From positions 1,246 through 65,245 of the forward strand of contig CAYFXR010000062.1 in the NCBI GenBank assembly GCA_964347155.1: a stretch of 64,000 nucleotides of DNA. Direction: 5' to 3'. Origin of the DNA: an uncultured Nitrospiraceae bacterium. GTDB taxonomy: Bacteria > Nitrospirota > Thermodesulfovibrionia > UBA6902. Position numbers and translations under genes: made by a program. Position 1 is the stretch's first letter, and the number at the start of each line of letters is the position of its first letter. Under the pieces are notes generated by a model, which saw nothing but the letters and a program-made list of their open reading frames with translations, searched no databases and was not told where the DNA came from. Positions 2,311-50,700 of the stretch are shown piece after piece.

Positions 2311-2455
2311 TTTATGAAGAAATGAACTTGAATACCCCGTTTTGTAAACTGGGATGAAAAGTTCTCCTTTCAGATCTCCCCCTTTGCTAAAGGGGGGGAA
2401 TACATAAGTATTAATCTTTTTTTGAAGCCCCGCCTTGTAGGCGGGGAGTTTCACT
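2311..2455 (+). repeat. Family A G/C-hairpin array repeat: the hairpins CCCCGTTTTGTAAAC(T)GGG, CCCCCTTTGCTAAAGGGGGGG and GCCCCGCCTTGTAGGCGGGGAG in a row.
   Basis: The same module, with the same order of hairpins, occurs at 28735-28945 and 50376-50587. Shorter versions are at 4519-4555, 19450-19546, 30067-30110 and 42822-42906 (reverse complement). Confidence 0.85.
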
Positions 2456-2756
2456 GTAAGTTTTAGCAGCACTGTAATAACATGCTGTTATTTCTGACAG
2501 TTGATATTCTATCGGGCAGAATATAGAATTAGACTTCAATTTCTTTCATTTTTAAGGGGGATATGGTACATGAATAAAATTTATGATTTGCTCTGGAAGA
2601 AGTCTGAAAGCAATGAAAAAACCCAGTGGGAGAGAGTGGGTATCATGCTTGAGAAAGAGGACGGAAAGAAGTCCGTGAAACTTGACCTTGTCCCTGCTGT
2701 CAACTGGGACGGCTGGCTTGTAGTCTCAGAGAGAAAGACAAAATAGGTTGCCTGAA

Positions 2757-4466
2757 TTACGCCTTCTCAACCTCGGCTATTAATTTCTGTGCTGTTTTTC
2801 CGGTTGTGAGTACTTTGATCCCTTCCCAACCGACAAAAACAGCCAGAATAACCAGCACTACACAGCTTATCCCGAGAAACATATTTGGATTGGGGCCCAT
2901 GAAAAAACCTGATGGGCTGAATGCCTGCCATAACAGAGCGGCTATAGTGGTAACAATCATAAAATATGCAGGAACGACTGTATATTTGGTAGGTTTTTTT
3001 ATTCCTATCAAATAGGCAGAAATAACGAATAAAGCCAGTGCTGCAACCAACTGATTGGTGGCTCCAAATACAGGCCAGATTTTCTTCCAGCTATTGGTAT
3101 ATCCAAGATAAAATGCAGGGGCAATAGTACAGAGCAGAGCTACATACCGGTTGGCAAATAAACGGAATTTATGACCAATTGATTCCTGAACAATAAACCT
3201 GGTGATTCTGGTAGCTGTATCTAAGGTGGTTAGTATAAAGGTCTTCAGGGCCATCATGGCAATCATAGAGGCGATGCCGAATCCTATGAAAGGAAAGGTA
3301 TCTCCAACGATGTTACCAAAGGCTGTTCCAAATGTTACAATCCAGCCTTTTTGATTGACCTCATTGAAGCTGAAACGTGCAGCATCCATGCCATGGGGAA
3401 GGATCCAGTATAGTCCTCCGGCGACGATCACCAGAGTTATGGTAGCAAGGATTCCCTCAATAAGCATACCTCCATAACCAATGGCTCTTCCGTCACTTTC
3501 CTTTGCTAACTGTTTTGATGTTGTTCCTCCTGCAACCAGAGAATGGAAGCCTGAGATTGCTCCACAGGCTACGATTACAAAGAGCATGGGCCATATAGGG
3601 CCTCCTTCAGTCACTGCAGAAGTGAATACAGGGGCCTTAATAGAGGGATGGATTATAATTATTCCAAGAATTCCCAGTATTAAAAGTGCGTAGAGATTAA
3701 AAGTCGCAATGTAATCTCTTGGTTGAAGAAGCACATACACGGGCAATATGGATGCCAGGGCTGCGTAAAGCATCAGGATTACAAACCAGAACATTACCGG
3801 AGACAGGCCGAAAAGACCTTCTTCAGGCAGAGAAATGGGATGAAAGTAACCTATTATAATAAAAACCAGGTTGGCTCCTACAGCCATAAGGGTTCCCCAT
3901 AGTAAAGGGACCCCTTTTTGATAAACCGACCATCCGAATATAATAGCTATGAAAATCAGAGAAAAAGTTGGAATGACCATCTGAGGGGCTTGAACCAACG
4001 TTAATGCACCTACTACGCCAAATACAGCAACAATAAGCACCATTGCCGCCCATAAGAATAAAGAGAAGACAGATTTTGCCCTTACTCCCATGGTGCGTTC
4101 TGCAATATTGGCAATGGAGGCTCCCCGATTTCTTACCGACATCATGAGAGTCATGTAATCATGTACAGCACCGAAGAAAAGATTTCCTATCATAATCCAT
4201 CCTAAAGTTGCCAACCATCCAAAATGACCTAATGCTAAAATAGGTCCTATAATGGGACCTGCACCGGCTATCGATGCAAAATGGTGACCAAAGAGGACGG
4301 GTTTTTTGGCAGGATAAAAATCCACGTTGTCCTGCATACTCCTGGAAGGTGTGGGGCGGCTGTCATCGGGATTAACTACTTTTTGATCAAGTTTGTTTAC
4401 ATAGTACTTGTAACCGACCAAGAAAAAGACAATGCACACAGAGGAAATAATTAATACCGAGATCAT
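2757..4466 (-). CDS. cstA: Carbon starvation protein A (CstA), a peptide/pyruvate transporter family member.
   Basis: 569-aa polytopic membrane protein. The N-terminal region ...FGHHFASIAGAGPIIGPILALGHFGW... is characteristic of CstA. Confidence 0.85.
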   Translation of the reverse strand: MISVLIISSVCIVFFLVGYKYYVNKLDQKVVNPDDSRPTPSRSMQDNVDFYPAKKPVLFGHHFASIAGAGPIIGPILALGHFGWLATLGWIMIGNLFFGAVHDYMTLMMSVRNRGASIANIAERTMGVRAKSVFSLFLWAAMVLIVAVFGVVGALTLVQAPQMVIPTFSLIFIAIIFGWSVYQKGVPLLWGTLMAVGANLVFIIIGYFHPISLPEEGLFGLSPVMFWFVILMLYAALASILPVYVLLQPRDYIATFNLYALLILGILGIIIIHPSIKAPVFTSAVTEGGPIWPMLFVIVACGAISGFHSLVAGGTTSKQLAKESDGRAIGYGGMLIEGILATITLVIVAGGLYWILPHGMDAARFSFNEVNQKGWIVTFGTAFGNIVGDTFPFIGFGIASMIAMMALKTFILTTLDTATRITRFIVQESIGHKFRLFANRYVALLCTIAPAFYLGYTNSWKKIWPVFGATNQLVAALALFVISAYLIGIKKPTKYTVVPAYFMIVTTIAALLWQAFSPSGFFMGPNPNMFLGISCVVLVILAVFVGWEGIKVLTTGKTAQKLIAEVEKA

Positions 4467-4518
4467 ATTAGAATTTTATCAAAATTAGTGATTTTATTTC
4501 TTCTGTAAAATATCCTGC

Positions 4519-4555
4519 AATCCCCCCCCTTGCCCACCTTTGTTAAAGGGGGGTA
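4519..4555 (+). repeat. Fragment of a family A hairpin (CCCCCCCCTTGCCCACCTTTGTTAAAGGGGGG) in the divergent cstA/xseA promoter region.
   Basis: G-run/C-run hairpin embedded in AT-rich spacer. It matches the family A unit CCCCCCTTTGCTAAAGGGGGG. Confidence 0.6.
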
Positions 4556-4602
4556 TTATAGAAATAACTTTACTTGCAGTGACGGAGTGAATAAGAGGAG
4601 AA

Positions 4603-5844: not shown

Positions 5845-6068
5845 TGAACGATACTCCGGGTTATAAAGATGCCATTGAAGAGATAGAATCCATCGTTGAA
5901 GAAATAGAAAATGAGACCATTGATGTTGATGTATTGACAGAAAAGGTAAAAAGGGCGACGTTTCTCATTAAATATTGCAAAGAAAGGCTGAAAGTAACAG
6001 ATAATGAAATTAAGAAGGTATTAAAAGATTTTGAGAAAGAAGAAGATACCGATGCAGAGCCTTTCTGA
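5844..6068 (+). CDS. xseB: Exodeoxyribonuclease VII small subunit.
   Basis: 74-aa acidic coiled-coil protein whose start overlaps the xseA stop (ATGA). Confidence 0.85.
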   Translation: MNDTPGYKDAIEEIESIVEEIENETIDVDVLTEKVKRATFLIKYCKERLKVTDNEIKKVLKDFEKEEDTDAEPF

Positions 6069-6099
6069 TAATAATGTTCTTTGTGAGTGCTGTAAAAAT

Positions 6100-6135
6100 T
6101 CAAAAGGAAGATCCAAAATGAATCTTCCTTTTGAG
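6100..6135. terminator. Bidirectional rho-independent terminator between convergent xseB and the PEP-CTERM gene.
   Basis: AAGGAAGAT-N9-ATCTTCCTT hairpin with T-runs on both strands. Confidence 0.45.
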
Positions 6136-7075: not shown

Positions 7076-7374
7076 TTAATGTCAAGTCAATTTTAATCTT
7101 TGCAAGTAGCAAAACATTAGAGGGGGCAAGTCCTTTCCGATGTAACACTTTCTCATGTCATGCTGAACCCTTAAAGTGTCATGCTGAACTTGTTTCAGCA
7201 TCTCCTATTAAACTTCGCTTAAATCTTTCCATTCACCCCAAAAATGCAGTTAAATAATGCAGGCGTTGGAAGAAATTATTTTTTCACCTCGGTGAATCTG
7301 CTGAGGTGGACGGTACCTTAAACGCAATATTAATTGATCGAGAGTGAACACTTTTATTCAAAGCCATATGCACA

Positions 7375-7487
7375 ATGTAATAATAAATGTATCCCGTAAA
7401 ATATTTACTATTAACGGGATACATCGAGTTAAATAATTTTGTTACAATGTCTGCATTATTTAATCTGAAAATGTCATTCCCATGAAA
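7375..7487 (-). repeat. Family B repeat (reverse orientation) fused to the left arm of a family C foldback element (GAAAATGTCATTCCCATGAAA), ending at the IS insertion point.
   Basis: The arm matches the reverse complement of 32851-32955 (CCGAAAATGTCATTCCCGTGTAAACGGGAATCC...). Confidence 0.7.
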
Positions 7488-9203
7488 CAGGCTGTTGCAG
7501 AATGACAAATATATTTATCTTCTCATTCGCAATTGATTATTTTCATGTATATATAACAATAAATTCTTATATCGGATAATAATCTGTTCTTTAAAATATT
7601 GATAGGCTACAAATAAGGGCAAAATAGTACGCAACAAGATATACATCTTGTTGATATTATGAGCTATGCACATAAGATTGAACTCACCCTGAACCTGTGA
7701 AAGACCCCGCAAGCGAAATCGTCTGAATCCTAAATTCTCTTTTATGTTCCCAATCGCCGGTTCAACTGTTGTCATTCGAACCTTCAGTTTCTCCTTTGCC
7801 TCGTTGCTTTGCAGTTTCTCAAGCATTTTCTCAGCGTATATTTCACGATCATCCCTGTGTATCCGTCTCACTCCTGATTTGTTATTGGAGGGTAAACAAT
7901 TCTGTTTATAAGAACAACTGCTACAGTCCACCGCTTTGTACGTTCTACCTCTCCAGCCTGATCGCCTATATCTCCTTTCAAATTTCAGCTTCTTCCTTGC
8001 TGGACATTCATAGTAATCTCCCTCTCTGTTGTATACAAAATCAGACCTCTCAAATTTCTCCTTCTCTTTTAATAGTTCCTCAGGATTCTTAACTGTATTG
8101 GCTTTATTTGCATTTGACCTGTTCTCTGGATGTGGATCTGCCACTGTAGCTTTGATCTGATTCTCTTCTATATACTCAAGCTCCTCCAAACTGTGGTAGC
8201 CCGCATCAGTAGTATATTCACGCTCAGCGTCGGCTCCTAAATTATTTTCAACATTCTCATACTGCTTTGAAAATTGATTCTGATCATTCCGGTCTTGCAC
8301 CACATCATTGCCACAAATCAGTTGGCTCTCTGTATCTACGCTTACCTGTACATTGTATGCAGGAGCTTTCTGCCTCCCGTTTACTTTATCCATTATTATT
8401 GCATCCGGTTCAATTATGTTTATCTTATGCCCATTCCAATATTCAGGTTTGACAGTCTCCTTTCGTTTTTCCAGTTGCTCCTGACGTTCTATTAAGGTCT
8501 TTTCCTTTCTTTGTAATTGCCCTACTTTCTCCCTTACTTCCTCAATCTCCTGCGACGTTTCCTCTTCAGACAACTCACACATCTCCATGTACTCTGCTAT
8601 ATCTTTTCGTACCGCTGATAGATGCTTTGATAGTGAATCAGTATCTTTACTCTTCCTTGCACTCGCCGAAGCCTGTATCCTTGAGCCGTCCATTGCTATA
8701 CTCTTGAATTCTCCTAACCCCTTCTCCCTTGCCAGTCGGACTATCTGAATAAAATAATCCGATAACAGGTTCAAATGCCTCTTCCTGAACCGGCTAAGGC
8801 TGCTGTGATCAGGCTGCAAGTTTGCCGATACATAGATGAAGTGCAAGTCTCTCTGACATCGTTGCTCAAGTTTGCGAGTGCTCGTCTCTCCCTCACTGTA
8901 GGCGTTAAACCAAGTTGCCAGCATTATCTCAGGATCAAAGGCGTCATTGCCTTGGTCGCTATACTGGTTGTAAAGCTCCCGCAAGTCTAATTCCGATACT
9001 ACTTTTACTACAAAACGACACTTGGCATTCTGCTCTACAAAGTCATCAAGACTATAACCTATGAAATTCATTTGCTCTCGATTGTTTGTTATAAATCCCA
9101 TTATTTCGCTCCTCAAATTTTTTCTGACGTATAGTATATTCGATTGAGCTGCTTATGTTAAGATTATTTATTCATTTGTTAGTACAGAAACTGCAACAGC
9201 CTG
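7488..9203 (-). mobile_element. Intact insertion sequence, 1716 bp, IS5/IS1182-type. It has perfect 13-bp terminal inverted repeats CAGGCTGTTGCAG and is flanked by a 4-bp direct repeat GAAA (7484-7487 and 9204-9207).
   Basis: The terminal inverted repeats are read directly (7488-7500 and, as reverse complement, 9191-9203). The single transposase ORF 7515-9116 fills the element. The flanks reconstitute one uninterrupted family C repeat (compare the copy at 32851-32955). Confidence 0.85.
7515..9116 (-). CDS. DDE transposase, IS5/IS1182 family, with an InsH-like N-terminal domain.
   Basis: 533 aa. The N-terminus DPEIMLATWFNAYSEGETSTRKLEQRCQRDLHFIYVSANLQPDHSSLSRFRKR matches the transposase InsH N-domain. 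TTDAGYHS is the D(1)G(Y/F) motif, and the C-terminus NLMCIAHNINK is a typical IS5-superfamily tail. Confidence 0.9.
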   Translation of the reverse strand: MRSEIMGFITNNREQMNFIGYSLDDFVEQNAKCRFVVKVVSELDLRELYNQYSDQGNDAFDPEIMLATWFNAYSEGETSTRKLEQRCQRDLHFIYVSANLQPDHSSLSRFRKRHLNLLSDYFIQIVRLAREKGLGEFKSIAMDGSRIQASASARKSKDTDSLSKHLSAVRKDIAEYMEMCELSEEETSQEIEEVREKVGQLQRKEKTLIERQEQLEKRKETVKPEYWNGHKINIIEPDAIIMDKVNGRQKAPAYNVQVSVDTESQLICGNDVVQDRNDQNQFSKQYENVENNLGADAEREYTTDAGYHSLEELEYIEENQIKATVADPHPENRSNANKANTVKNPEELLKEKEKFERSDFVYNREGDYYECPARKKLKFERRYRRSGWRGRTYKAVDCSSCSYKQNCLPSNNKSGVRRIHRDDREIYAEKMLEKLQSNEAKEKLKVRMTTVEPAIGNIKENLGFRRFRLRGLSQVQGEFNLMCIAHNINKMYILLRTILPLFVAYQYFKEQIIIRYKNLLLYIHENNQLRMRR

Positions 9204-9432
9204 GAAAACGGGAGTCCATTTCCTTTATCTGGCCTCCCGCCATAGTGGGATATGTTACATAACGTGTTGTATGCTACTGTTGCCTCACGTGGTGTCCCAC
9301 TTTCGCGGGGACGGCGTCTGGAATCCCCGCTCAAGACGGATGGTACAGGGCAAGCTCTGAACCGGATGTACAGGGCAAGTCGGGGAATGACGGATAAAGG
9401 CATTTTAATTCTTTGTGGTGCCCCATAGGGAC
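9204..9432 (+). repeat. Right arm of the interrupted family C foldback element (GGGAGTCCATTTCCTTTATCTGG...GTGTCCCACTTTCGCGGGGACGGCGTCTGGAATCCCCG...CGGGGAATGAC), followed by a family D module (GGCATTTTAATTCTTTGTGGTGCCCCATAGGG).
   Basis: Homologous copies are at 44895-45000, 32851-32955 (reverse complement) and 31215-31345. The D module also occurs at 32815-32850 and 59219-59258. The ORF 9179-9532 lies wholly inside this repeat and is rejected. Confidence 0.75.
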
Positions 9433-19302: not shown

Positions 19303-19449
19303 TTATGTCTTTCGTAACATTGTGCTGTTGATTTATTTCCTGTCAAATCTAACACAAAGTATAGTACAAAAAATATTTTAAAACAAGTAGTACTCAAAAA
19401 AAGGTAAGCATATCTAAATTCGTGACAGGACAGATAAGACTGGAAATAA

Positions 19450-19546
19450 ATTCCCCTCTTTGGAAAAGAGGGGGTAGGGGAGATTTTATAATAAATACAG
19501 TTTCAATAACAAATCCCCCCTCGCCCCCTTTAATAAAGAGGGGATA
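19450..19546 (+). repeat. Family A hairpin-array repeat, short version (TTCCCCTCTTTGGAAAAGAGGGGGTAGG ... AAATCCCCCCTCGCCCCCTTTAATAAAGAGGGGAT).
   Basis: Same order and spacer (GATTTTATAAT...) as the copies at 28780-28880 and 50440-50530. Confidence 0.8.
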
Positions 19547-19654
19547 AAGAAAGCTACTCAAGCTGCAATGCATATTATAGTATTTATCACGGAAAAAGAG
19601 ATGCGTGTAATTGTAAAAAGGATTCGAGGATTCGTTCCTGCAAAAAACCAGAAA

Positions 19655-22667: not shown

Positions 22668-22729
22668 TTTTAGCTATTAGCCAATAGCTATCAGCTAATA
22701 GCTTTATATGCTATAATTAAATATAAGCA

Positions 22730-27881: not shown

Positions 27882-28538
27882 CTAGGCCAGCAGCACTGAT
27901 ATTATCCCTACAATAAAGATACCGTCAAAGACCCCTGCTCCTCCAATGCTCAGAAAAAAAACTCCAAATTTTTTTATCTGACGGAGCCTGAGCAAATCGG
28001 CTCCTATGAGTGTTCCCATAACACCGGATATGTATGCAACGGCCGGTGCATTCCCCTTTTCTGAAAATATTAATGCAGCGACTGCGGCAATAATGGGGGG
28101 AATGAATGCAGGAATAACTATTCCTACTCCTTTGACGGGTTTGCTCAAATAATAGGAGAAGATGGTTGTAACAACAGTTGCCGGTACGACAGAACTGATA
28201 TTCACTCGCGAAATAAGGTAGAGACTTAGCAATCCAGGTAGTATTGCACCTCCTAAGTTGAGAGAAACAATTTGCTCGTGAAACGCTGGTATTCTTATAC
28301 CAAAGAACCTGTTGAAGAAAGTCGTTATATCATCTGGCTCTTCATAATATTCAAGTTCTTTCCTGTAAACAGGGATGTTAATCAAGCTTCCCATTAAACA
28401 GAGCCAGAAGAAAACCAGCCCTATGAAAGGACTTAATCCCAACTTTGCAAAGGCAACGGCAGGGAGCATAAAGATAAGAAATGGAATTAAAAATAAAAAA
28501 ATCAGAAAGATTGCGATGGATATCGGAAGAAAATACAT
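27882..28538 (-). CDS. Polytopic membrane protein, DUF1614-like (assignment tentative).
   Basis: 218 aa, mostly hydrophobic, ending GGAGVFDGIFIVGIISVLLA. Confidence 0.4.
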   Translation of the reverse strand: MYFLPISIAIFLIFLFLIPFLIFMLPAVAFAKLGLSPFIGLVFFWLCLMGSLINIPVYRKELEYYEEPDDITTFFNRFFGIRIPAFHEQIVSLNLGGAILPGLLSLYLISRVNISSVVPATVVTTIFSYYLSKPVKGVGIVIPAFIPPIIAAVAALIFSEKGNAPAVAYISGVMGTLIGADLLRLRQIKKFGVFFLSIGGAGVFDGIFIVGIISVLLA

Positions 28539-28596
28539 GTTTTTATCCTTCTCTGTAATTATATCAGATCAGATCTGTCCAATATAGTGGCAAAGA

Positions 28597-28662
28597 GTAG
28601 GCTGAATGCCGAGAAAACAGAATTGCGCCCGTCGATCAATTATGTTTTGGAGGGTCAGCCTG
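28597..28662 (+). repeat. Family E repeat (AGGCTGAATGCCGAGAAAACAGAATTGCG...) with an internal AGGCTGA/TCAGCCT inverted pair.
   Basis: A 37-nt near-identical copy is at 42776-42812. The related GAATTGCGACAC is at 50650-50662. Confidence 0.7.
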
Positions 28663-28707
28663 CTATTTGTTATTACATTGGACATCAGTGATATCAAATA
28701 TTCAAAC

Positions 28708-29085
28708 CAAATAATGCAGACATTGCTCAAAAATTTATGAAGAAATGAACTTGAATACCCCGTTTTGTAAACGGGGATGAAAAGTTCTCCTTATCAAATC
28801 TCCCCCTTTGGAAAAGGGGGAATAAGGAGGATTTTATAATTATAACATCGACAAATCCCCCCTCACCCCCCTTTGCTAAAGGGGGGGGAATACATAAGTA
28901 TTAATCTTTTTTTGAAGCCCCGCCTTGTAGGCGGGGAGGTTCATTTAACTCGATGAATTTATTATTAAATTATGCATATGAATTTGAATAAAAATATGCA
29001 TAAGTACATTGATTAAAAATGCATTTAAGGTATCGAAAAATAAATTTTTTCACAACATCTGCATTATTTTTAATGCATTTTTGGG
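28708..29085 (+). repeat. Composite repeat locus: a family B module, a full family A hairpin array (four G/C hairpins), then an AT-rich family F module (GGTATCGAAAAATAAATTTTTTCACAACATCTGCATTATTTTTAATGCATTTTTGGGG).
   Basis: Collinear with 50293-50587 (B then A). The F module recurs at 38095-38175 with a 26-nt insertion. Confidence 0.85.
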
Positions 29086-29151
29086 GTCAATCGGATACAT
29101 TACTGCTGGTTCAATCGAGGATAATTGAACCAGCAAAGCTAATAAGACTGG

Positions 29152-30153
29152 TCATGAGCTAAATGACTGCAAAAGGGCTTCTACCTCTTCCAATCTCGGT
29201 ATGCCCGCTCTCCCGCCTAATTTCCGGCATTTCAGCGCTGCAAATGCCGATGCAAAACGCACAACATCCTTTATATTCCATTTCTGCAGGATCCCATAAA
29301 TATAACCTCCATGAAATACATCACCTGCACCTGTTGTGTCAATAACGTCAACCTTAAAAGCCGGGGTCTGAAAGATTTCATTCCCGGAGATTGTAATGCT
29401 CCCTTTTTTACCAAGGGTGATTGTTGTTGCCCTTGTATTAAATTCCTTCATGTGCATAACGGATTTTTCTGGATCGAATGAATCTTTGTTATTCAACAAT
29501 TCTCTTGCAAATTCTTCTGAGCAGACCACATAGTTACATAGATGCGCTATTTCAATCATTCCTTCTCGTACCCGGCCGGCATCAAGCATCACAGGAATAT
29601 TTTTTTCTTGTGCCTTTTTTGCAGCATATATAGATACCTCCTCCATAAGTCCATCAATAAGGAGAAAGTCCGCATTGTCAAGAAAATCCTCAGGTAGTTC
29701 ATGTGGTTTTAAGGGTTCTGCAGAAGGTCTTTTCCAGAATATTGTCCTTTTGCTACTGCCTTTTTCAACGGCGATAAATGCGACCTGAGAGCTGGACTGA
29801 GGTCTTTTTAAGAGACCTTTGATGTTTACATTTTCTGATTCAAGAGATTCCTTGATTTTTATCCCAGCTTCATCATCACCTGCAATGCCGTAAAAACTGC
29901 AATGAATACCGAGCCTTGAAAGACTTACAAGCGCGGTTGCAACAGGACCGCCGCTTGCTGTTGTACATTCTATTACTTCTTTTTTTGTGTCTGGCACAGG
30001 AAAAGAATCTACAATAAACAGATTGTCAAAAGAACACTGTCCAATTCCTACAACTTTTTTCTGAAAATCCCCCCTTCCCCCCTTTGCTAAAGGGGGGTTA
30101 GGGGGGATTAGATTTTTCTTCTTTTTTTTGCCTGAGTCACCGCTGGTGTGCAT
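29152..30153 (-). CDS. PfkB-family carbohydrate/nucleoside kinase (ribokinase-like). The real N-terminus is probably near 30060, because the first 30 codons of the tracked ORF are a read-through of a family A repeat.
   Basis: Conserved GG dipeptide region and the C-terminal anion-hole motif DTTGAGDVFHGGYIYG. The N-terminal MHTSGDSGKKKKKNLIPPNPPLAKGGRGD is a translation of the repeat at 30067-30110. Confidence 0.8.
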   Translation of the reverse strand: MHTSGDSGKKKKKNLIPPNPPLAKGGRGDFQKKVVGIGQCSFDNLFIVDSFPVPDTKKEVIECTTASGGPVATALVSLSRLGIHCSFYGIAGDDEAGIKIKESLESENVNIKGLLKRPQSSSQVAFIAVEKGSSKRTIFWKRPSAEPLKPHELPEDFLDNADFLLIDGLMEEVSIYAAKKAQEKNIPVMLDAGRVREGMIEIAHLCNYVVCSEEFARELLNNKDSFDPEKSVMHMKEFNTRATTITLGKKGSITISGNEIFQTPAFKVDVIDTTGAGDVFHGGYIYGILQKWNIKDVVRFASAFAALKCRKLGGRAGIPRLEEVEALLQSFSS

Positions 30154-30178
30154 TCTAGTGCATGAGGGTTATCTTTTT

Positions 30179-30712
30179 TTATTTTCGTTTCCAAGGGAAC
30201 GGAATGATCATTGGAGTATTTCCCCTGTATTTAATATATTCATTCCCAAAATCATTAATCAGTCGCTTTTCTTCTATCAGTTTAAGATATATTGCAAATA
30301 AAATAAAAAATATCAATAAAATGAATATCACACTCAGTGAATCAAAGTAAACAGCAATTGAAAAGTATGTTGAAAATACACCGTACACCATAGGGTTTCT
30401 GGTAAATCTATAAGGCCCGGTTACTACCAACTTCTTGGTCTGCGGACTAATAGCAATTCCAAATAGGTCCGTTGGCCCACCCTTGCCTTTTCTTAATAAA
30501 AATATATTTGACCATATAATAAATACTATCCCATTTATTAATAATATCGAAGATATAATTATACGAATCGATTTAGAAAAAAATATTGTGGTGCTCAATA
30601 TACAGTAACGTGAGGAGGCCAGATAAAATATCCCGTATGGGATCAATATTATGAATATACTTATTCCTAAAATATAGCCTGCAATACATCTTTCAATATT
30701 ACTTCGTCCCAT
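30179..30712 (-). CDS. Membrane methyltransferase of the isoprenylcysteine carboxyl methyltransferase (ICMT)/PEMT family.
   Basis: Four or five TM helices and the motif VVTGPYRFTRNPMVYGVF, matching the family pattern G-P-Y-x-x-x-R-H/N-P-M-Y. Confidence 0.7.
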   Translation of the reverse strand: MGRSNIERCIAGYILGISIFIILIPYGIFYLASSRYCILSTTIFFSKSIRIIISSILLINGIVFIIWSNIFLLRKGKGGPTDLFGIAISPQTKKLVVTGPYRFTRNPMVYGVFSTYFSIAVYFDSLSVIFILLIFFILFAIYLKLIEEKRLINDFGNEYIKYRGNTPMIIPFPWKRK

Positions 30713-30720
30713 TGCAATTA

Positions 30721-30915
30721 ATTTATGAAAATTTTACCAGAATACCCCTTGCTGTGCAAGGGGATGAATGGCATCCTTTCAAATCCCCTCTCCCCTGGTG
30801 GGAGAGGGAAAGGGTGAGGGGGAACAAATTAATCAATCACCCCCACATTAATCCTCCCCCGTCAAGGGGGAGGAGAATTAAGATGCCCCTCCTTGTAGGC
30901 GGGGAGCTTCACTTC
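30721..30915 (+). repeat. Family A2 hairpin-array repeat: the hairpins CCCCTTGCTGTGCAAGGGG, CCCCTCTCCCCTGGTGGGAGAGGG, CCTCCCCCGTCAAGGGGGAGG and CCCCTCCTTGTAGGCGGGGAG.
   Basis: A near-identical copy (about 95%) is at 49653-49845. The terminal hairpin GCCCC(G/T)CCTTGTAGGCGGGGAG is shared with family A. ORF 30712-30933 is a translation of this repeat and is rejected. Confidence 0.85.
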
Positions 30916-30967
30916 ATGTCATTTTTTTCTTAAAGATTACGCACTCATATCAATATCAATGTCAACG

Positions 30968-31102
30968 TGGTCGCATCTTTATCTGTGAGAGATTTTCATT
31001 TTTCCGGCCAGCAAGCAGGGATTTCACCCATTTAGTTTATTAAATATCCTAATCTGTTGTGAAGTAATCTACTACTTTTATTACAGATAAAGATGCGACC
31101 CC
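30968..31102. repeat. Small foldback element with 18-bp terminal inverted repeats ACAGATAAAGATGCGACC and an internal tandem duplication AAAGATGCGACC(C/T)ACTCACG(TACTCACG)CTACTCAT.
   Basis: Left arm 30968-30990 (GGTCGCATCTTTATCTGT), right arm 31085-31102. The direct repeat is visible at 31094-31160. Confidence 0.6.
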
Positions 31103-31214
31103 ACTCACGTACTCACGCTACTCATAAAGATGCGACCCTACTCACGCTACTCATTTTGCTAGCAAACTTTATCTAATTGCTACATACCTTGGTCAATTTC
31201 GAGAAAAAATCGCG

Positions 31215-31345
31215 GGAGGTGTCTAAATCGCAGGTCTCCAGATTTCATTTTTCCTCTGAAGAATGGAGACCTGACACCAATTCCTTCCTGGATTCCCCGA
31301 TCAAGCCTGTCATCGACCTGATCGGGGATCAGGGAATGACATTCA
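31215..31345 (-). repeat. Family C foldback element copy (contains CTGGATTCCCCGATC...GATCGGGGATCAGGGAATGACATTC).
   Basis: Shares the CTGGA(A/T)TCCCCG core and the GGGAATGACATT terminus with the copies at 9204-9392 and 32851-32955. It carries its own internal hairpins. Confidence 0.6.
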
Positions 31346-31421
31346 TGTAGAAATGCAATTTATACACAGACACTATTAAACCGCTTGACTACATATAAGT
31401 TTTAGTTTTATTCTTATTTTC

Positions 31422-32792
31422 ATGAAAAAATTGTGGGGAGGAAGATTTAAAGAAAAAACCGAAAAGACTGTGGAGAGTTTTACATCTTCACTTTCTTTTG
31501 ATGTAAGGCTCTGGAAGCATGATATAGAAGGCAGTATTGCCCATGTAAAAATGCTCGGAAAGCAAAAGATTGTCACCCAAAAAGATGCTGAATTGATTAT
31601 CAAAGGTCTTAATGAGATAAAGGCAGAGATTCAGAACGGTACATTCAGGTTTCATGAAAGCCTTGAGGATGTGCATATGAATATAGAGCATGCCCTGATT
31701 AAGAAAATAGGAGATATGGGGGGAAAACTCCATACGGCAAGAAGCCGGAATGACCAGATAGCTCTTGATATGAGGCTTTTTCTCAGGGAAGGGATAACTG
31801 AAATCATTAAATTAATCAAGGGCTTTCAGATGGTAGTTGTCAGGATTGCTGAGAAACATGTTGATATTGTTATGCCTGGTTATACGCATCTTCAAAGGGC
31901 ACAACCGGTACTGCTTTCACACCATTTGCTTGCTTACTTTGAGATGTTTGAGCGTGACAGGGAGAGATTTGAAGATTGTCTGAAAAGGGTTAATGTTTTA
32001 CCTCTTGGTTCTGTTGCTCTGGCAGGGACATCACTGCCGATTGACAGGAAGTATGTTGCAAGATTGCTAAGATTTCCAAAAATTTCGGAAAACAGTATTG
32101 ATACAGTATCTGACAGGGATATTGTTATTGAATTTATTTCTGCATCATGTATGTTGATGATTCATCTTTCAAGACTTGCAGAAGAATTTATTATCTGGAA
32201 CAGTACAGAGTTTGGATTTATTGAGCTGCCGGATGCCTTTACAACAGGTTCAAGTATTATGCCACAGAAAAAAAATCCTGACGTCCTGGAATTGATACGA
32301 GGTAAGACAGGCAGGGTCTGTGGACACATGACGGCAATCTTAACCGTTATGAAGGGGCTTCCACTTGCTTATAACAGGGACATGCAGGAAGATAAGGAGC
32401 CTGTTTTTGATACAGTTGATACGGTAAAGTCGTGTCTTTATGTACTGGCGAAAATGATGCCCAAGGTTGTGTTCAGGAAAGAAAAAATGAAATGTGCAAC
32501 GGAAGCAGGATTTCTTAATGCTACGGACATTGCTGAGTATCTTGTTAAAAAGGGAATGCCTTTCAGGGAAGCTCATAATGTAACCGGTAAAATTGTCAAA
32601 TATTGTATTGGTAAAAACAAGACATTGGCAGACATCGATCTACATGAATTAAAGCGATATTCTAAACTGATTGATAAGGATGTATTTAATAATATTTCTA
32701 TAGAGGCTTCTGTTAGAGGAAAAAAGTCTTATGGCGGAACATCAAAGAAAACGGTACGTGATCGTATTAAGCGAATTAAAGATATGAAATAG
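31422..32792 (+). CDS. argH: Argininosuccinate lyase.
   Basis: 456 aa starting MKKLWGGRFKE, with the fumarate-lyase signature GSSIMPQKKNPD. Confidence 0.95.
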   Translation: MKKLWGGRFKEKTEKTVESFTSSLSFDVRLWKHDIEGSIAHVKMLGKQKIVTQKDAELIIKGLNEIKAEIQNGTFRFHESLEDVHMNIEHALIKKIGDMGGKLHTARSRNDQIALDMRLFLREGITEIIKLIKGFQMVVVRIAEKHVDIVMPGYTHLQRAQPVLLSHHLLAYFEMFERDRERFEDCLKRVNVLPLGSVALAGTSLPIDRKYVARLLRFPKISENSIDTVSDRDIVIEFISASCMLMIHLSRLAEEFIIWNSTEFGFIELPDAFTTGSSIMPQKKNPDVLELIRGKTGRVCGHMTAILTVMKGLPLAYNRDMQEDKEPVFDTVDTVKSCLYVLAKMMPKVVFRKEKMKCATEAGFLNATDIAEYLVKKGMPFREAHNVTGKIVKYCIGKNKTLADIDLHELKRYSKLIDKDVFNNISIEASVRGKKSYGGTSKKTVRDRIKRIKDMK

Positions 32793-32814
32793 TCAGATGG
32801 TAAAAATGTATTGT

Positions 32815-32955
32815 AGACCCTAAAGGACACCACTAAGAGTGAAAATGCCCTTGTCTGTTGTTCCCCTCGATCGGGGAATCCAGACGTCGTCCCCGCGAAA
32901 GCGGGGAGCCAGATAAAGGAAATGGATTCCCGTTTACACGGGAATGACATTTTCG
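32815..32955 (-). repeat. Family D module plus an uninterrupted family C foldback element (reverse orientation). This is the reference empty site for the IS insertion at 7488-9203.
   Basis: Its reverse complement reads CCGAAAATGTCATTCCCGTGTAAACGGGAATCCATTTCCTTTATCTGGCTCCCCGCTTTCGCGGGGACGACGTCTGGATTCCCCGATCGAGGG, collinear with 7463-7487 plus 9204-9330. Confidence 0.75.
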
Positions 32956-32962
32956 GATTACA

Positions 32963-33496
32963 TTGAGCGATTCTTATATACATAGGTGTGCAATGCAGGT
33001 TCAAAAATTCATAATGCGATTGGATATTGGAATTGTCTTACTGAGTGCTGCTTTCTGCCTACTTTTAATTTTTATTGGTGCTTGCGGCAGAAGAGGGGAT
33101 CCGGTTGCAATCGTGCCGCGTGAAGAAAAGAATATTGAAAAGGAATTAAATAAAAACAATAATAAGGACGAGGACATAAGCGAAACCCGAAAGAAAGGGA
33201 AAGAAACGCCTGAGATGAAGGTAAATTCGCCCGATTCTCCCACAGGACTGACCGCCATATATACTCAACAAAGTATTATCCTTACATGGGATGAGATAAC
33301 AGGACAGGAAATCAGATTTTACAGGATTTATCGCTCTGAAGGTAATGATTACATACATGTTGGAGATACCGTTATTCCTGCCTTCAGTGATAAGAATATA
33401 AAATCGAATATAAAGTATTATTATAAAATTAGCGCGGTTGGAGCGTCGGAGAGTCCTTCATCAAAAGAAATCGAAATTGTAACAACGATTAAGTGA
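32963..33496 (+). CDS. Putative lipoprotein with a fibronectin-III-like beta-sandwich domain. The probable start is the internal Met at about 33016.
   Basis: Lipobox LLIFIGAC, a low-complexity K/E-rich linker, then ...SPTGLTAIYTQQSIILTWDEITGQEIRFYRIYRSEGNDYIHVGD..., which is FN3-like. Confidence 0.5.
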   Translation: MSDSYIHRCAMQVQKFIMRLDIGIVLLSAAFCLLLIFIGACGRRGDPVAIVPREEKNIEKELNKNNNKDEDISETRKKGKETPEMKVNSPDSPTGLTAIYTQQSIILTWDEITGQEIRFYRIYRSEGNDYIHVGDTVIPAFSDKNIKSNIKYYYKISAVGASESPSSKEIEIVTTIK

Positions 33497-33514
33497 TACG
33501 GAGGTTCACTGATA

Positions 33515-38094: not shown

Positions 38095-38175
38095 CGGTAT
38101 CGAAAAATAAATTTTTTTCGTCTCGGTGGATACGAGTCTGAAAAAACATCCGCATTATTACAAATGCATTATTGG
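38095..38175 (+). repeat. Family F AT-rich repeat in the purH leader (GGTATCGAAAAATAAATTTTTTTC-[26-nt hairpin insert]-ACATCCGCATTATTACAAATGCATTATTGGG).
   Basis: Matches 29028-29085. The insert GTCTCGGTGGATACGAGTCTG resembles CACCTCGGTGAATCTGCTGAGGTGGA at 7286-7311. Confidence 0.6.
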
Positions 38176-38210
38176 GTTAACAAATCGAATATTGTGTTAA
38201 GGAGGATAAT

Positions 38211-42613: not shown

Positions 42614-42775
42614 TATAAGAATTATTTTACAATTTTCTATATATAAATAAAGTAATGTATGGGCTTTTATTAATTATACGTTCTTGTCGTGAAATCATCA
42701 ATTTTAATGTTGTATGTACAAAATATTTGCTTTTATTAATTAGTGTTGGATCACTGATGTCCAAAACAATGGCAA

Positions 42776-42906
42776 ACAGCAGGCTGAATGCCGAGAAAAC
42801 AGAATTGCGACACCTTTAGTAGAGGGGGGGGAGAGGGGGGGATTTGCTATAAAGACATTTATTATAAAATCTACCCTTACCCCTCTTTGCCAAAGAGGGG
42901 GATATA
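42776..42906. repeat. Family E module (42776-42812) followed by a family A hairpin array in reverse orientation (42822-42906).
   Basis: AGGCTGAATGCCGAGAAAACAGAATTGCGACAC, then GGGGGGGAGAGGGGGGGATTT...ATTATAAAATC...CCCCTCTTTGCCAAAGAGGGGG. The latter is the reverse complement of the GATTTTATAAT-containing family A core. Confidence 0.75.
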
Positions 42907-43167
42907 ACTTAAAGAATGTTTTCAATGATGCAATGTTTTATATGCATCTGGATTATCTGATATAAAAAGTATAAAATCAAATGTACATCTATCTTGAATT
43001 TTTTTCCCATAGTCAGTTCAAAAAATGAAATTATTACCGTGAAAATAATTCAGGATAATGCATGAGAAATTGAAACACAAACTAAATATCCGGAATTTTA
43101 TATTAGCTTACTAAATGAAGAATAGATGAACTGGTAAAATCGATGCAGTATGCTGTAAAGTAAGTTT

Positions 43168-44894: not shown

Positions 44895-45000
44895 CACAGT
44901 GGGATACCCCACGTGGTGTCCCACTTTCGCAGGGACGGCGTCTGGATCATCCGGTCAAGCCCTGAACCAAATGGTTCAGGTCAAGCCGGATGATGACATG
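44895..45000 (+). repeat. Family C repeat copy (CACGTGGTGTCCCACTTTCGCAGGGACGGCGTCTGGATCATCCGG...CTGAACCAAATGGTTCAG...GATGATGAC).
   Basis: About 85% identical over the 45-nt core to 9296-9340. It carries an extra internal hairpin CTGAACC-AAAT-GGTTCAG. Confidence 0.75.
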
Positions 45001-47155: not shown

Positions 47156-47157
47156 AT

Positions 47158-47598
47158 ATGAAAAATATCAATATTGAGACGGGTGTGGGAATTTTCTTAA
47201 TTGTCGGACTTCTTTGTCTGGGTTTTCTTTCTGTAAGGTTGGGTGATGTAAATCTTTTTGGTACTGAGCAATATACTATTAAGGCGCGTTTTGCGAATGT
47301 TTCCGGTCTTAAGGAAGGCGCAATAGTTGAGATTGCAGGCGTTACGGTGGGAAAGGTTTCTGAAATTCAACTCGATGACTATGAAGCTTCTGTAGAGATG
47401 CTTATTGATCCTAAAGTAAAATTACAGGAAGATTCTATTGCCTCTATAAGGACACAGGGTATTATCGGGGATAAGTATATAAAGATCAAGACAGGTGGCT
47501 CTGAAGAGTATATTGGAAAAGGAGAAGAGATATTAGAAACCGAGTCAGCTATAGAATTGGAAGAGCTTGTTAGTAAATACATTTTTGAGAAAGAATGA
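47158..47598 (+). CDS. mlaD: MCE-domain protein MlaD.
   Basis: An N-terminal TM helix followed by a single MCE domain, 146 aa. Confidence 0.8.
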   Translation: MKNINIETGVGIFLIVGLLCLGFLSVRLGDVNLFGTEQYTIKARFANVSGLKEGAIVEIAGVTVGKVSEIQLDDYEASVEMLIDPKVKLQEDSIASIRTQGIIGDKYIKIKTGGSEEYIGKGEEILETESAIELEELVSKYIFEKE

Positions 47599-47879
47599 AT
47601 ATCATGTCTGTCTAAATTAGATAATATCAGGAGGCTGAATACCTCACAAACACAATGAATCGACAATATATAACCTTATTTTGCTTGATCTCATTTTAGA
47701 GGATTTACAGAGTTCATATTCTTGAAGATAAGCTGAGAGCAGTTCTTGAGGAGTCGTCATTGTGTTTATTCGGCATCCAGCCTCCTTTGAGAAACTATTT
47801 TGGACAGCTATTAATGAATATAAAAATTAACTCCAGATAGTAAAGGTGATTGAATAATAATAAACATGAGGAGTAAAAA

Positions 47880-48482
47880 ATGAATATAAGAATAACACTT
47901 CCACTCTTGATTGTAGTAACGTTTATTTTGAGTCTATTTACAGCGGTTACGGCTGTAAATGCTCCGACAAATGCTGTAAAATCCACAATTGATGCTGTTC
48001 TTGAAACATTGAAGGATAAAGAATTATCCCATCCCGATAAAAAACAAGAAAGACGCAACAGGATAAGAGGTTTTGTGAGAAACAGATTTGATTTCGAAGA
48101 AATGGCCAAGCGTTCTTTGGCGAGGCACTGGAAAAAAAGGACCCCTGAAGAGAAAAAGGAATTTGTATCTATTTTCTCTGATCTTTTAGAAGCTTCTTAT
48201 ATAGGAAAGATAGAGGCTTATACAGATGAAAAAGTTACATATGATAAAGAAGTGCTTAAAGGTAATAGTAAATACGGAACAGTCGGTACTACAATTATAA
48301 CAAAAAGCGTTAATATTCCTATTGATTATAAGGTTATATTCAAAGATGGAAAATGGTGGGTTTATGATGTAGTAGTAGAGGGAGTAAGTTTTGTCAGTAC
48401 ATACAGAAGCCAATATAATAAAATTATTCTTAAGGAATCTTATGCACAATTGATCCAAAAAATGAAGAATAAACTTCATTAA
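47880..48482 (+). CDS. mlaC: Periplasmic phospholipid-binding protein MlaC (Ttg2D family).
   Basis: A signal peptide, then the Ttg2D/MlaC fold (RFDFEEMAKRSLARHWKKRTPEEKKEFVSIFSDLLEASYIGKIEAY). Confidence 0.8.
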   Translation: MNIRITLPLLIVVTFILSLFTAVTAVNAPTNAVKSTIDAVLETLKDKELSHPDKKQERRNRIRGFVRNRFDFEEMAKRSLARHWKKRTPEEKKEFVSIFSDLLEASYIGKIEAYTDEKVTYDKEVLKGNSKYGTVGTTIITKSVNIPIDYKVIFKDGKWWVYDVVVEGVSFVSTYRSQYNKIILKESYAQLIQKMKNKLH

Positions 48483-48602
48483 GTGAATTGGCTTTTGATG
48501 AGGAGATACCTTGAATTATTGAGATGTTTTTTTAGCTTTTGAAATACTTCTTTAACCTAAATGTTCCACTTTATCTAATGAAATAACCCGGGAACAAACT
48601 AA

Positions 48603-49550
48603 ATGAACTCGAAAAAGACTGCTTTATATAATTTTATTATAATTTTAACTATAGTATCCTGCATCCTACTTTCTATCCGCTTTTCTCACGGCACGGATGT
48701 GTTTAGTTCATCCGTTTTTATGGATCTTAAGACCTCTATAGAGGAACTGTCACTGAAAGTTGAAAGAGCTAGCCCTGGTATTGTATCGATTGTTGTTTAT
48801 GACAATACAGGGTCAGAAAAAGGAATAACCAGCGGTTTTTTTATAGACAGAAAAGGACTAATCATGACAAATGCCCTTGTTATGAAGGGTGCATACTCTG
48901 CGGAAGTATATAGCGAATCTAATTATTATAATGATGTTACCATTCTCAGCCGGAATGAGGATCTTGATCTTGCATTGATCCAGGTCAAGGCAATTAATGA
49001 GAGCGCCCTTGAATTCGATTTTGAATATAAATTGAGTCACGGTGAGAGAGTTATCGCTATCGGCAAATCACGTGGTTTAAAGAAGACCGTTTCAGAGGGT
49101 TTGATTAGTGCTGTCAGTAACATTAAAGAGAAATTAGAACTTATTAAAATTCAAACTGTCACACCGATATTATCTTATAACACAAGCAGGGATGGTCCTT
49201 TATTAAATATGGAAGGCAGGGTGATAGGAGTATTGACTACCGCGATTTCTGAGGATAAAAGTTTTAATACAATCCCCTGGATTTCAGATGATCAAAACAT
49301 TAATGCAATTGGTGGAAGCTCAATTAAAACTTTTCTTTTAAGGCAGTATAATGTAGAACATCTTCATCCCCCGAAGTCCAAAGTTTGGTCAAGGTGGTTC
49401 ATAAAATGGTCAAAAACAGTAGCCATTAATGGATTTATCACTTTGTATGAAACTGGATTTACAAAAATTTTAGCCGTTATTTTTGCTATCATATTATTTA
49501 TATCATTAATTCAGTGGCTTTACAGTAAAATGAAAAAGAATCTTTGGTAA
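48603..49550 (+). CDS. Trypsin-like (S1/HtrA-like) protease homolog that appears catalytically inactive, with N- and C-terminal TM helices.
   Basis: In the chymotrypsin-fold core, the conserved TNAHV is TNALV here (His to Leu) and GDSGGPLL is TSRDGPLL (Ser to Arg by best alignment). The Asp motif DLDLALIQV is retained. Confidence 0.55.
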   Translation: MNSKKTALYNFIIILTIVSCILLSIRFSHGTDVFSSSVFMDLKTSIEELSLKVERASPGIVSIVVYDNTGSEKGITSGFFIDRKGLIMTNALVMKGAYSAEVYSESNYYNDVTILSRNEDLDLALIQVKAINESALEFDFEYKLSHGERVIAIGKSRGLKKTVSEGLISAVSNIKEKLELIKIQTVTPILSYNTSRDGPLLNMEGRVIGVLTTAISEDKSFNTIPWISDDQNINAIGGSSIKTFLLRQYNVEHLHPPKSKVWSRWFIKWSKTVAINGFITLYETGFTKILAVIFAIILFISLIQWLYSKMKKNLW

Positions 49551-49607
49551 ACTAAAAAGCTTGCATTAATAAATTGTTTTTATTATATTTTTTAGTAGTT
49601 CTATAAT

Positions 49608-49845
49608 CCCAATAATGCAGACATTGCTTAATAAATTATTTAACTCGATATATTTATGAAAATTTTGCCAGAATACCCCTTGCTGTGCAAGGGGATGAAT
49701 GGCATCCTTTCAAATCCCCTCTCCCCTGGCGGGAGAGGGAGAGGGTGAGGGGGAACAAATTAATCAATCACCCCCACCTTAATCCTCCCCCGTCAAGGGG
49801 GAGGAGAATTAAGATGCCCCGCCTTGTAGGCGGGGAGCTTCACTA
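49608..49845 (+). repeat. Composite repeat locus: family B module (49608-49652) plus a family A2 hairpin array (49653-49845).
   Basis: Collinear with 30721-30915. Only single-base differences, for example TGGTGGG versus TGGCGGG. Confidence 0.85.
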
Positions 49846-49895
49846 GATTTATTGTTTTTGGTACTTTAGAAATAAAAGTAATTTTTTTCACTGCC

Positions 49896-50264
49896 ATGGA
49901 CATTTTTAGTAAGATAGCGGAGAGGAAGATACGCGAGGCTATAGAAGATGGCATGTTTGAAAACCTGTCCGGTAAGGGTGAGCCTCTTCATTTCGAAGAT
50001 GAAACGTGGATTCCTGAAGACCTGAGAATTGCTTATCGATTTTTAAAAAATGCCGGTCTCGTTCCTCCTGAACTTGAACTGAGAAATGAAATTGTAAATC
50101 TCAAAAATCTTATTGATACCCTTGATGATGATAAAGAACGGCTTAAAAAAATAAGGGAACTTAATTATAAAATCATTCATTTGAGTATATTAAGAAAAAA
50201 GCCTCTGAATCTGGAAGATTTTCCTGAATACGAAAATAAAATTATAGATAAAATATCTTCCTGA
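49896..50264 (+). CDS. DUF1992 (DnaJC28-like) domain protein.
   Basis: The N-terminus IAERKIREAIEDGMFENLSGKGEPL matches the DUF1992 signature as recalled. Confidence 0.55.
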   Translation: MDIFSKIAERKIREAIEDGMFENLSGKGEPLHFEDETWIPEDLRIAYRFLKNAGLVPPELELRNEIVNLKNLIDTLDDDKERLKKIRELNYKIIHLSILRKKPLNLEDFPEYENKIIDKISS

Positions 50265-50292
50265 TATTCAGTTTCCCTAATTTCTGCTTAAT

Positions 50293-50700
50293 CAAAATAA
50301 TGCAGAGTCGATTCGACCTCTAAAATTTATTTAACTCGATTTATCCCGTTAATAGTAAATATTTTACGGGATAAATTTATGAAGAAATGAACTTGACTAC
50401 CCCGTTTTGTAAACGGGGATGAAAAGTTCTCCTTATCAAATCTCCCCCTTTGGAAAAGGGGGATTAAGGGGGATTTTATAATTATAGCTTTTACAAATCC
50501 CCCCTTACCCCCCTTTACTAAAGGGGGGAAATAGAAGGACAGTTAATATTTTTTGAAGCCCCACTCTGTGGGCGGGTTAATTCACTAGTGAAATATGCAT
50601 ATGACAAAAAGACTGGATTGTCCGGTTAAACCGGACAATGGCATATGTATGATGCTGAATTGCGACACAGCCACAGGATGGGGGGCTGGAGAATGACAAA
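50293..50700 (+). repeat. Composite repeat locus: family B (including the hairpin TTATCCCGT-N16-ACGGGATAA), a full family A hairpin array, then the hairpin TTGTCCGG-TTAAA-CCGGACAA and E-like GAATTGCGACAC / GAATGACAAAAG modules.
   Basis: 50376-50587 is collinear with 28735-28945 and 2311-2455. GAGAATGACAAAAG resembles the IS left end CAGAATGACAAATAT at 7498-7512. Confidence 0.8.

Follow-up and report, generated by a model that had tools for sequence, protein, structure and literature searches.

The window analysed here is a stretch of 64,000 nucleotides (positions 1,246–65,245 of contig CAYFXR010000062.1, assembly GCA_964347155.1) from an uncultured Nitrospiraceae bacterium; the next relatives of its ArgH are 72–81% identical and bear, where named, Nitrospirae or Nitrospirota metagenome-assembled genome (MAG) names. 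Besides argH it holds pfkB, a phospholipid methyltransferase gene, an insertion sequence (IS) of the IS1182 family and, as the only matches to Rfam 15 at the gathering score, tmRNA, tRNA-Met and a c-di-GMP-I riboswitch, none of which lies within the hairpin-rich repeats that are the subject of this work (families A to E and a module G, Table 1). On a simple gene map, intergenic DNA makes up 19% of the window and the repeats, which sum to 3086 nt, fill 24% of it; they are found at 16 or more loci. Of the 26 gaps that measure 150 nt or more they occupy 16, and of the 10 that measure 500 nt or more, 8. Comparison of the window with itself returned, at essentially the same positions, the families that a first, sequence-only reading had pointed out: A1 (2311–2455, 28734–28943, 50376–50586; 88–97% identity), A2 (30721–30928 against 49652–49858; 95%, E 7e-72), B (634–745, 7383–7461 in reverse, 28684–28738, 29043–29069, 49571–49653, 50247–50366; 76–91%), C (9187–9355 against 32866–32954 and 44907–44986; 74–87%), D (32818–32853 against 59223–59258; 89%) and E (28556–28627 against 42737–42809; 82%). 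Seven full or partial copies of B, four of C, three of D and two to three of E are present. The four hairpin sequences quoted in that reading occur as written, and its statement that all copies lie between genes holds for 96% of the repeat nucleotides, the remainder falling within open reading frames (ORFs) or RNA genes; the identity among copies, given there as 85–100%, was measured at 62–97%. [quoted passage not shown] Our reading, to which we assign a probability of about 0.85, is that the repeats are nested non-autonomous mobile elements of at least three such classes, which accumulated and inserted into one another.

Family A (subtypes A1 and A2) is represented in the window by five copies, all of them directly preceded by TTTAT; four further places previously counted in this family (4519–4555, 19450–19546, 30067–30110 and 42822–42906) hold only its internal module G and lack the A ends. 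Scanning one genome per species with the terminal hairpin GCCCCNCCTTGTAGGCGGGG gave at least 117 loci, and the matches listed include Syntrophales, Thermodesulfobacteriota, Nitrospirota, Bipolaricaulota, Chloroflexota and others, many of them at contig ends. In four of the fetched loci, which are given L numbers (L040, L075, L089 and L100), the right hairpin GCCCCGCCTTGTAGGCGGGG plus NNNTTCAC stands 1–13 nt past the stop codon of a 143-aa ORF, which is a Pfam Y1_Tnp protein (E 8e-41) and has the TnpA proteins of ISDra2 and IS608 as its closest solved structures. The L040 IS starts, upstream of the gene, with TTTAT/GAAATCATCGAACTTGAATACCCCGTTTTGTAAACGGGGATGAAAAGTTC (the slash marks the element boundary), and this left end shares 93% identity with the 55 nt at the 5' end of A1. 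Given the position of the hairpin 3' of the Y1_Tnp ORF and this match of the left end, family A corresponds to the left and right ends of an IS200-group element. The earlier suggestion to look for an IS200/IS605 transposase with matching subterminal hairpins thus found its object in other genomes, the A ends matching ISs that encode a Y1 (HUH) TnpA in L040, L054, L075, L089 and L100. Judged by these ends, A and A2 are tnpA-less derivatives of the IS200 group (IS200/IS605 family), of the type known as palindrome-associated transposable elements (PATEs), in which other hairpins appear to have replaced tnpA. A full A1-like composite, with ends and G module, occurs in another Nitrospirota MAG (L106, 83% identity), where further copies break contigs; since the composite recurs there, G travels as A1 cargo.

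One element plan is common to 22 elements of 89–540 nt from many genomes. It runs from a flank ending in TTAY, through 16–20 nt and a left hairpin (6-bp lower stem, internal loop GAAWR/ATGAA, 8-bp upper stem with TGT loop), to a variable cargo, a second hairpin and 8 nt that end in TCAC, TCAT or TTAC. TTAY precedes nearly all of the 22 (L103 has TGAC, L067 is ambiguous), and both ends carry subterminal imperfect palindromes on the same strand, terminal inverted repeats being absent. The left hairpin covaries strongly: 93.9% of the cells are paired and 10 of the 14 pairs show compensatory changes, and the covariation score is 0.62, against 0.195 for shuffled alignments (0 of 500 as high) and at most 0.12 for slid controls. 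The four invariant pairs were set by the search pattern and count for nothing as evidence. Moreover, the base just 5' of the upper stem tracks the last base of the target, being A with TTAT in seven families and G with TTAC in eight. The complete guides are AATA or AAAA with TTAT and AATG or AAAG with TTAC, and the last position has no exception among the 15 families. IS608 has its TTAC target 19 nt 5' of the left hairpin, at whose foot a 4-nt guide reads it; on the right, cleavage falls 10 nt 3' of the hairpin, and an altered guide retargets insertion (PMC3201880). The covariation of guide and target in family A is, as read from these alignments, the rule established for IS608.

These data also bear on a reading in which the hairpins form a domesticated system like the repetitive extragenic palindromes (REP) and bacterial interspersed mosaic elements (BIMEs), dispersed and maintained by a single-copy REP-associated tyrosine transposase (RAYT) and having a structural or regulatory function, for instance in stabilising mRNA or as binding sites for proteins. 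As in REP/BIME systems with RAYTs (PMC3333891), the hairpins have GC-rich stems, are intergenic, cluster as mosaics and are related to a Y1 HUH enzyme. Among such enzymes IS200 TnpA and the RAYTs are relatives of each other, and one homologue of the transposase (P0220) bears the database label 'REP-associated tyrosine transposase'. However, the 143-aa protein reaches 150.9 bits with the NCBIfam IS200/IS605 model (cutoff 55) and 35.8 bits with the RAYT model NF047646 (cutoff 80), it is flanked, like the gene of an IS, by directly oriented left and right hairpins that do not alternate, and it is multi-copy. Indeed, two copies are present in L100, and 4635 homologues were found at E <= 1e-30, most of them on contigs of 0.6–1.7 kb, a size close to that of the IS itself and a sign that the element is very abundant and breaks environmental metagenome assemblies. 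The A ends, finally, have TTAY and TCAC as boundaries, obey the TTAY and guide rule of IS608 and show no GTAG head. A REP/BIME-like structural role had been proposed from the sequence; a RAYT-driven system of this kind is for these reasons improbable.

Since both its architecture and its guide rule match those of IS608, family A, as an IS200-group derivative, most likely moves by single-strand 'peel and paste', for which IS608 and ISDra2 are the sources (PMC3201880, PMC5027513). A Y1 HUH transposase supplied in trans would bind both hairpins on the single-stranded top strand and cut 3' of the flanking TTAT, recognised by its pairing with the AATA guide that immediately precedes the left hairpin; a second cut would fall 3' of TCAC, 8 nt past the right hairpin. 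The excised strand would circularise, its junction of right and left ends reading ...TTCAC/GAAGAAATG..., and would re-insert 3' of another TTAT on the lagging-strand template, the target not being duplicated. Precise excision would leave the joint TTTAT/TTAACTCGAT. All five A copies and all eight intact A hairpins are on the plus strand, which is G-rich over the entire window and therefore presumably the lagging-strand template; this bias fits, if weakly, the orientation on the lagging-strand template that is expected for elements of the IS200/IS605 family (PMC5027513). Activity of the elements in this genome, and the identity of the enzymes that would act in trans, are inferred.

Family B forms the second class. 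Searching metagenomes for the B end yielded 120 loci, at least 60 of which have true B copies, and the alignment of 37 full-length copies defines a non-coding element of ~185 bp with terminal inverted repeats of 20–30 bp (CCCRAATAATGCAGACATTG... and ...CAACATCTGCATTAT..GCATTTTTYGGG). TTAA stands beside the left end in 22 of 34 copies and beside the right end in at least 18 of 34, and the matched variant flanks TTTA/TTTA, AATA/AATA and TAAA/TAAA show that the flank is a true 4-bp target duplication and not element sequence. Family B can thus be classified, by its ends and flanks, as a classical cut-and-paste MITE with a 4-bp, mostly TTAA, target duplication, which some DDE transposase would presumably move. 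Size, terminal repeats, duplication and the many copies in related metagenomes are all as in classical MITEs; the difference is that no autonomous IS sharing the terminal repeats of B was found among the 120 metagenome loci, to which this search was confined. Candidates for an autonomous partner proved to be nested MITEs only, the single long-spaced pair being a chance match. We take the TTAA duplication and the CCC...GGG tips to recall piggyBac/IS1380-like or IS5-group elements. The 33-nt hairpin insert TATCCCGT...ACGGGATA is present in three B copies of the window and missing from every metagenomic copy shown. A pair of genes for a PIN-domain toxin and a ribbon-helix-helix antitoxin (832–1544) adjoins the truncated copy B1.

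Three of the A copies lie inside copies of B. Around the insertion sites B reads ...CAAAAATTTAT/TTAACTCGATGAATTTAT/T... (slashes at the sites); A1b follows the first TTTAT of B, A2b and A1c the second. When A1b is removed, B3 aligns without break, at 90% identity, to uninterrupted metagenomic B copies, and the target is not duplicated. Insertion at two sites together with these empty sites indicates that the B-A junctions recur because A inserted independently each time, into a strand-specific TTTAT. The sequence-only reading had taken B-A and B-A2 for composites mobilised as a single element, and the three junctions do share order and orientation. Yet they fall at two distinct TTTAT sites, one of which is occupied by A1 as well as A2, over 30 B copies from metagenomes are free of A, A is also found without B (2316–2454 and 30727–30912), and the strand-specific target by itself explains the common orientation, which leaves movement as a composite very improbable.

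The third class comprises family C, in part joined to module D. At its tips family C has GTCATTCCCG-loop-CGGGAATCC hairpins that read ATTCCC-N8-GGGAAT, the dRS3/NTS motif of Neisseria, and related elements bearing two inverted tips are frequent among the fetched loci. NTS and Ssn-related motifs (SRM), known from several phyla, are single-stranded DNA targets that small GIY-YIG nucleases (Ssn) bind and cut (PMC11893778). The SRM pattern HGTCWYN(0-2)YYVSBRHN(0-5)WNVSBRGN(0-2)RNCYNB has one match in the window (32922–32949, minus strand; 0.09 expected by chance), the other C tips being diverged or split. The exact Neisseria NTS consensus (CGTCATTCCCGCGMAVGCGGGAATCYRG) occurs in L103 (position 1220), L099 (4145), L071 (2656), L080 (5229) and L008 (5379), of which L103 is from Thermodesulfovibrionia and the rest include Syntrophales and other MAGs. 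Family C, with D, is best described, from its tip motifs, as a mosaic that has hairpins of the NTS/dRS3 kind (Ssn-related motif) as its boundaries, and GTCATTCCCGTGTAAACGGGAATCC would be a candidate single-stranded substrate for an Ssn homologue. Compared with the NTS/dRS3 hairpins, Neisseria intergenic mosaic elements (NIMEs) and SRM (PMC11893778), family C is alike in the tip hairpin, in the one copy that fits the SRM pattern and in the mosaics of repeat units bounded by such hairpins, which here flank argH; it differs in that no ssnA-type gene is present in the window, that three of the four C copies have diverged tips and that the loop sequence departs from the Neisseria NTS consensus, the likeness being one of motif alone. 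A partial GIY-YIG ORF occurs in the Nitrospirota locus L045.

The placement of C elements varies between relatives. Among the loci syntenic to the argH region (L118–L122), L118 and L119 lack the D+C block 32815–32955 in the orthologous gap downstream of argH, and in L121 the same gap holds a different element of the C type, GTCATTCC...GGAATGAC. Of the C copy claimed at 31215–31345 the right-end module is present, whereas the rest of C is not shared. The complete IS1182-family IS, which encodes a 533-aa transposase, sits within a family C element. Its DDE transposase (7515–9116), having C fragments on its flanks, was considered as the parent of C and rejected: with its own 13-bp terminal repeats and GAAA duplication within the C copy, the IS is a later arrival and not the parent.

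The hairpins could also be functional transcript elements, i.e. terminators, attenuators, small RNAs or other cis-regulatory folds, and transcription punctuation had been proposed for them. Single-strand folds of every family are far stabler than shuffled controls (z -3.6 to -7.2), in favour of this reading, and two hairpins pass a loose terminator scan (28918–28936, plus strand; 49817–49835, minus strand). On the other hand, most hairpins lack a T tract, and among ~20 A/G hairpins a T tail, at best weak, follows only 2; the terminator scan returned 10 hits at 28000–33500 against 4.3 +/- 2.2 in shuffled sequence and 2 at 49000–51000 against 1.8 +/- 1.6, most of them outside the A/G hairpins. 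Rfam, as stated above, has no match in the repeats. Family A is always on the plus strand, whatever the orientation of the neighbouring gene and whichever side, 5' or 3', it lies on; the same sequences flank a transposase gene in other genomes, and orthologous gaps of relatives are without copies. We give a transcript role hardly any credence. A CRISPR-like array was rejected on account of irregular spacing, dissimilar units and dispersed copies, and a phage origin of A and B because, among 2.9 million viral contigs, 4 contain the A right hairpin and none contains the B end.

Our reading of the repeats as nested mobile elements of several classes draws on the boundaries of the elements, the sites found empty, the matches with ISs that bear a transposase, and the covariation within hairpins and between guide and target, all of which are observed directly. 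Several points weigh against it. Within the 64 kb there is no Y1 transposase (tblastn detected no Y1 tnpA), no GIY-YIG gene (for the cd10448 type, a six-frame motif scan by regular expression only) and no B-type transposase. The strand bias of A concerns five copies only, and the direction of replication is deduced from GC skew alone. A1 copies diverge by 3–12%, and an end hairpin is damaged in two of them (the left one in 2316–2454, the right one in 50381–50585), so some copies are decaying relics. The spread of A across phyla relies on MAG bin labels and on loci picked by an exact 20-mer, by which the conservation of the right hairpin appears inflated. The link of C to Ssn is a resemblance of motifs, the published pattern fitting one of the four copies, and for G, E and D no mobilisation mechanism is supported.

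Table 1. Repeat elements, modules and the insertion sequence located in the 64-kb window.
Feature	Positions	Strand	Description
B1	677–745	+	truncated left part of TTAA-duplicating MITE; TTAA 673–676
A1a	2316–2454	+	internally deleted PATE; left hairpin mutated (CCCCGTTTTGTAAACTGGG); TTTAT at 2311–2315; 3' end TTTCAC
degenerate G hairpin	4519–4555		from self-comparison
B2	7236–7461	-	full-length; carries 33-nt TATCCCGT...ACGGGATA hairpin insert
C1 left tip (GTCATTCCCATGAAA)	7473–7487	+	parted from rest of C1 by IS insertion
IS1182-family IS	7488–9203	-	13-bp perfect terminal inverted repeats; GAAA duplication 7484–7487, 9204–9207; Pfam; NF033551 361 bits
C1 body + D	9204–9430	+	C ends GGGGAATGAC at 9391; module D 9397–9430
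G alone	19447–19551	+	two C-run/G-run hairpins, AT-rich spacer between; foldback
E1	28556–28685	+	130-nt foldback; z -5.6
B3	28707–29086	+	full-length, interrupted by A1b; terminal inverted repeats CCAAATAATGCAGACATTG and CAACATCTGCATTATTT..GCATTTTTGGGG
A1b	28739–28944	+	full PATE: left hairpin, G module, right hairpin; within B3, 3' of TTTAT 28734–28738
single complete G hairpin (AATCCCCCCTTCCCCCCTTTGCTAAAGGGGGGTTAGGGGGGATT)	30064–30112		inside 5' end of pfkB ORF
A2a	30727–30912	+	PATE with A1-type ends, other internal hairpins; TTTAT 30722–30726; ends GCTTCAC
C4	31215–31345	+	right-end hairpin module only (GGATTCCCCGATCAAG...GATCGGGGATCAGGGAATGAC)
D + C2	32815–32955	-	left tip TGTCATTCCCGTGTAAACGGGAATCCAT (32922–32949) fits published SRM pattern
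B4	38097–38176	+	right half of B MITE; then TTAA 38177–38180
E2	42737–42809	+	left arm of E only
G	42814–42924	-	reverse orientation; adjoins E2
C3	44895–45000	+	C core + right hairpin, compensated stem (ATCATCCGG...CCGGATGAT)
B5	49608–49657	+	left part, interrupted by A2b; degenerate remainder past 49843
A2b	49658–49843	+	95% identical to A2a; within B5, second TTTAT site of B
B6	50293–50380	+	left part with hairpin insert; interrupted by A1c; resumes 50586 to ~50610
A1c	50381–50585	+	PATE within B6, second TTTAT site; right hairpin partly decayed
D3	59219–59258		solo D module

Besides these classes, G and E are foldback hairpin modules that occur alone and inside A and B. G is a nested C-run/G-run hairpin, AAATCCCCCC-N-CCCCCCTTTNNNAAAGGGGGG-N-GGGGGGATT, in the form of a single unit or of two half-units that flank an AT-rich spacer (Table 1); it lies within A1 and within a B copy of L147, and was found in 30 of ~240 fetched loci from several phyla. 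Of E, the copy reported before at 28597–28662 is in fact a 130-nt foldback (28556–28685). Neither G nor E has recognisable ends of any known transposon, and the G module is the least explained part. That it stands for an undescribed class of hairpin-only mobile element preferring other mobile elements as hosts is a tentative and rather unlikely idea; on this idea G might hijack the same single-strand machinery as the elements it sits in, and could be likened to the enigmatic SMR-A repeats of Haloquadratum, which lie in PATEs, as a parasite of other mobile elements.

One G hairpin is placed inside the 5' end of pfkB (29152–30153), and the stretch 30067–30153 had been called a false N-terminal extension of this gene. 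After the ATG at 30153, no in-frame ATG, GTG or TTG occurs before codon 53, a position already inside the conserved domain, and the start of the orthologue, MEITGIGQ..., has no counterpart in the window. As the only usable start is upstream of the G hairpin, the hairpin is probably translated, and it probably encodes a real 31-residue N-terminal extension of PfkB (MHTSGDSGKKKKKNLIPPNPPLAKGGRGDFQ) and not an annotation artefact, which makes the earlier claim doubtful. The gap between pfkB and argH measures 135 nt in the syntenic L119 against 1335 nt in the window (30049–31384), the additional DNA comprising the phospholipid methyltransferase gene (30179–30712), the G hairpin, A2a and C4. Between A2a and C4 we also observed an inverted repeat, GGTCGCATCTTTATCTGT and ACAGATAAAGATGCGACC (30965–30988 and 31081–31109), followed by a tandem copy at 31119–31146; this region (30965–31146) could represent another small element or, upstream of argH, a site resembling an operator.

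Further small repeats were noticed elsewhere in the window. An inverted pair of 86-nt repeats (32959–33043 and 54586–54671, 86% identity), also present in the metagenome locus L158, overlaps with its first copy the start of the ORF 32963–33496, whose N-terminus is unlike that of the L118 orthologue. The c-di-GMP-I riboswitch (63210–63365) carries an AGCT-rich palindromic insert in a stem (63266–63328), with a second, 80% identical copy at 63413–63478, past a terminator-like hairpin. A related heptamer-like run (22670–22702) lies immediately 5' of the tmRNA gene, and this small repeat family was missing from the first account of the window.

As the nearest precedent, PATEs derived from IS605-type elements were described in Haloquadratum walsbyi, where they, MITEs and small repeats are nested in each other (PMC3119063), and PATE-like elements have been reported in Geobacillus stearothermophilus (PMC10055086). 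Family A resembles PATEs in its near-terminal hairpins at both ends and on one strand, in the absence of terminal inverted repeats and of target duplication, and in being targeted by, and nested with, other small repeats. Like PATEs and IS608, it inserts 3' of a fixed tetranucleotide, which lies 16–20 nt before the left hairpin (19 nt in IS608), and its right end, 8 nt past the right hairpin, compares with the 10 nt of IS608, as does its covariation of guide and target. It differs from the described PATEs in its host, a bacterial Nitrospirota lineage, in its parent, which belongs to the IS200 group with tnpA only and neither tnpB nor omega RNA, in the target TTAT in place of TTAC, and in a cargo of additional C-run/G-run hairpin modules. 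The present case is thus a bacterial example from the Nitrospirota with an IS200-group parent and a TTAT target, found beside a TTAA MITE and mosaics of NTS-type hairpins.

The repeats add members to kinds of elements that are already known, and reveal no new repeat system or mechanism. Their assignment accounts for the GC-stem hairpins that abound between genes and at the ends of contigs in MAGs of Nitrospirota, Syntrophales and relatives, and carries a warning for annotation, as such hairpins give spurious or altered ORF starts, pfkB being a case in point. The elements also provide a natural data set in which the guide-target rule of IS608 (TTAT versus TTAC) can be read from sequence over 15 element families. 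Finally, three repeat systems based on hairpins or single strands, namely IS200/PATE elements, hairpins of the NTS/SRM type and foldback modules, are nested in one genome.

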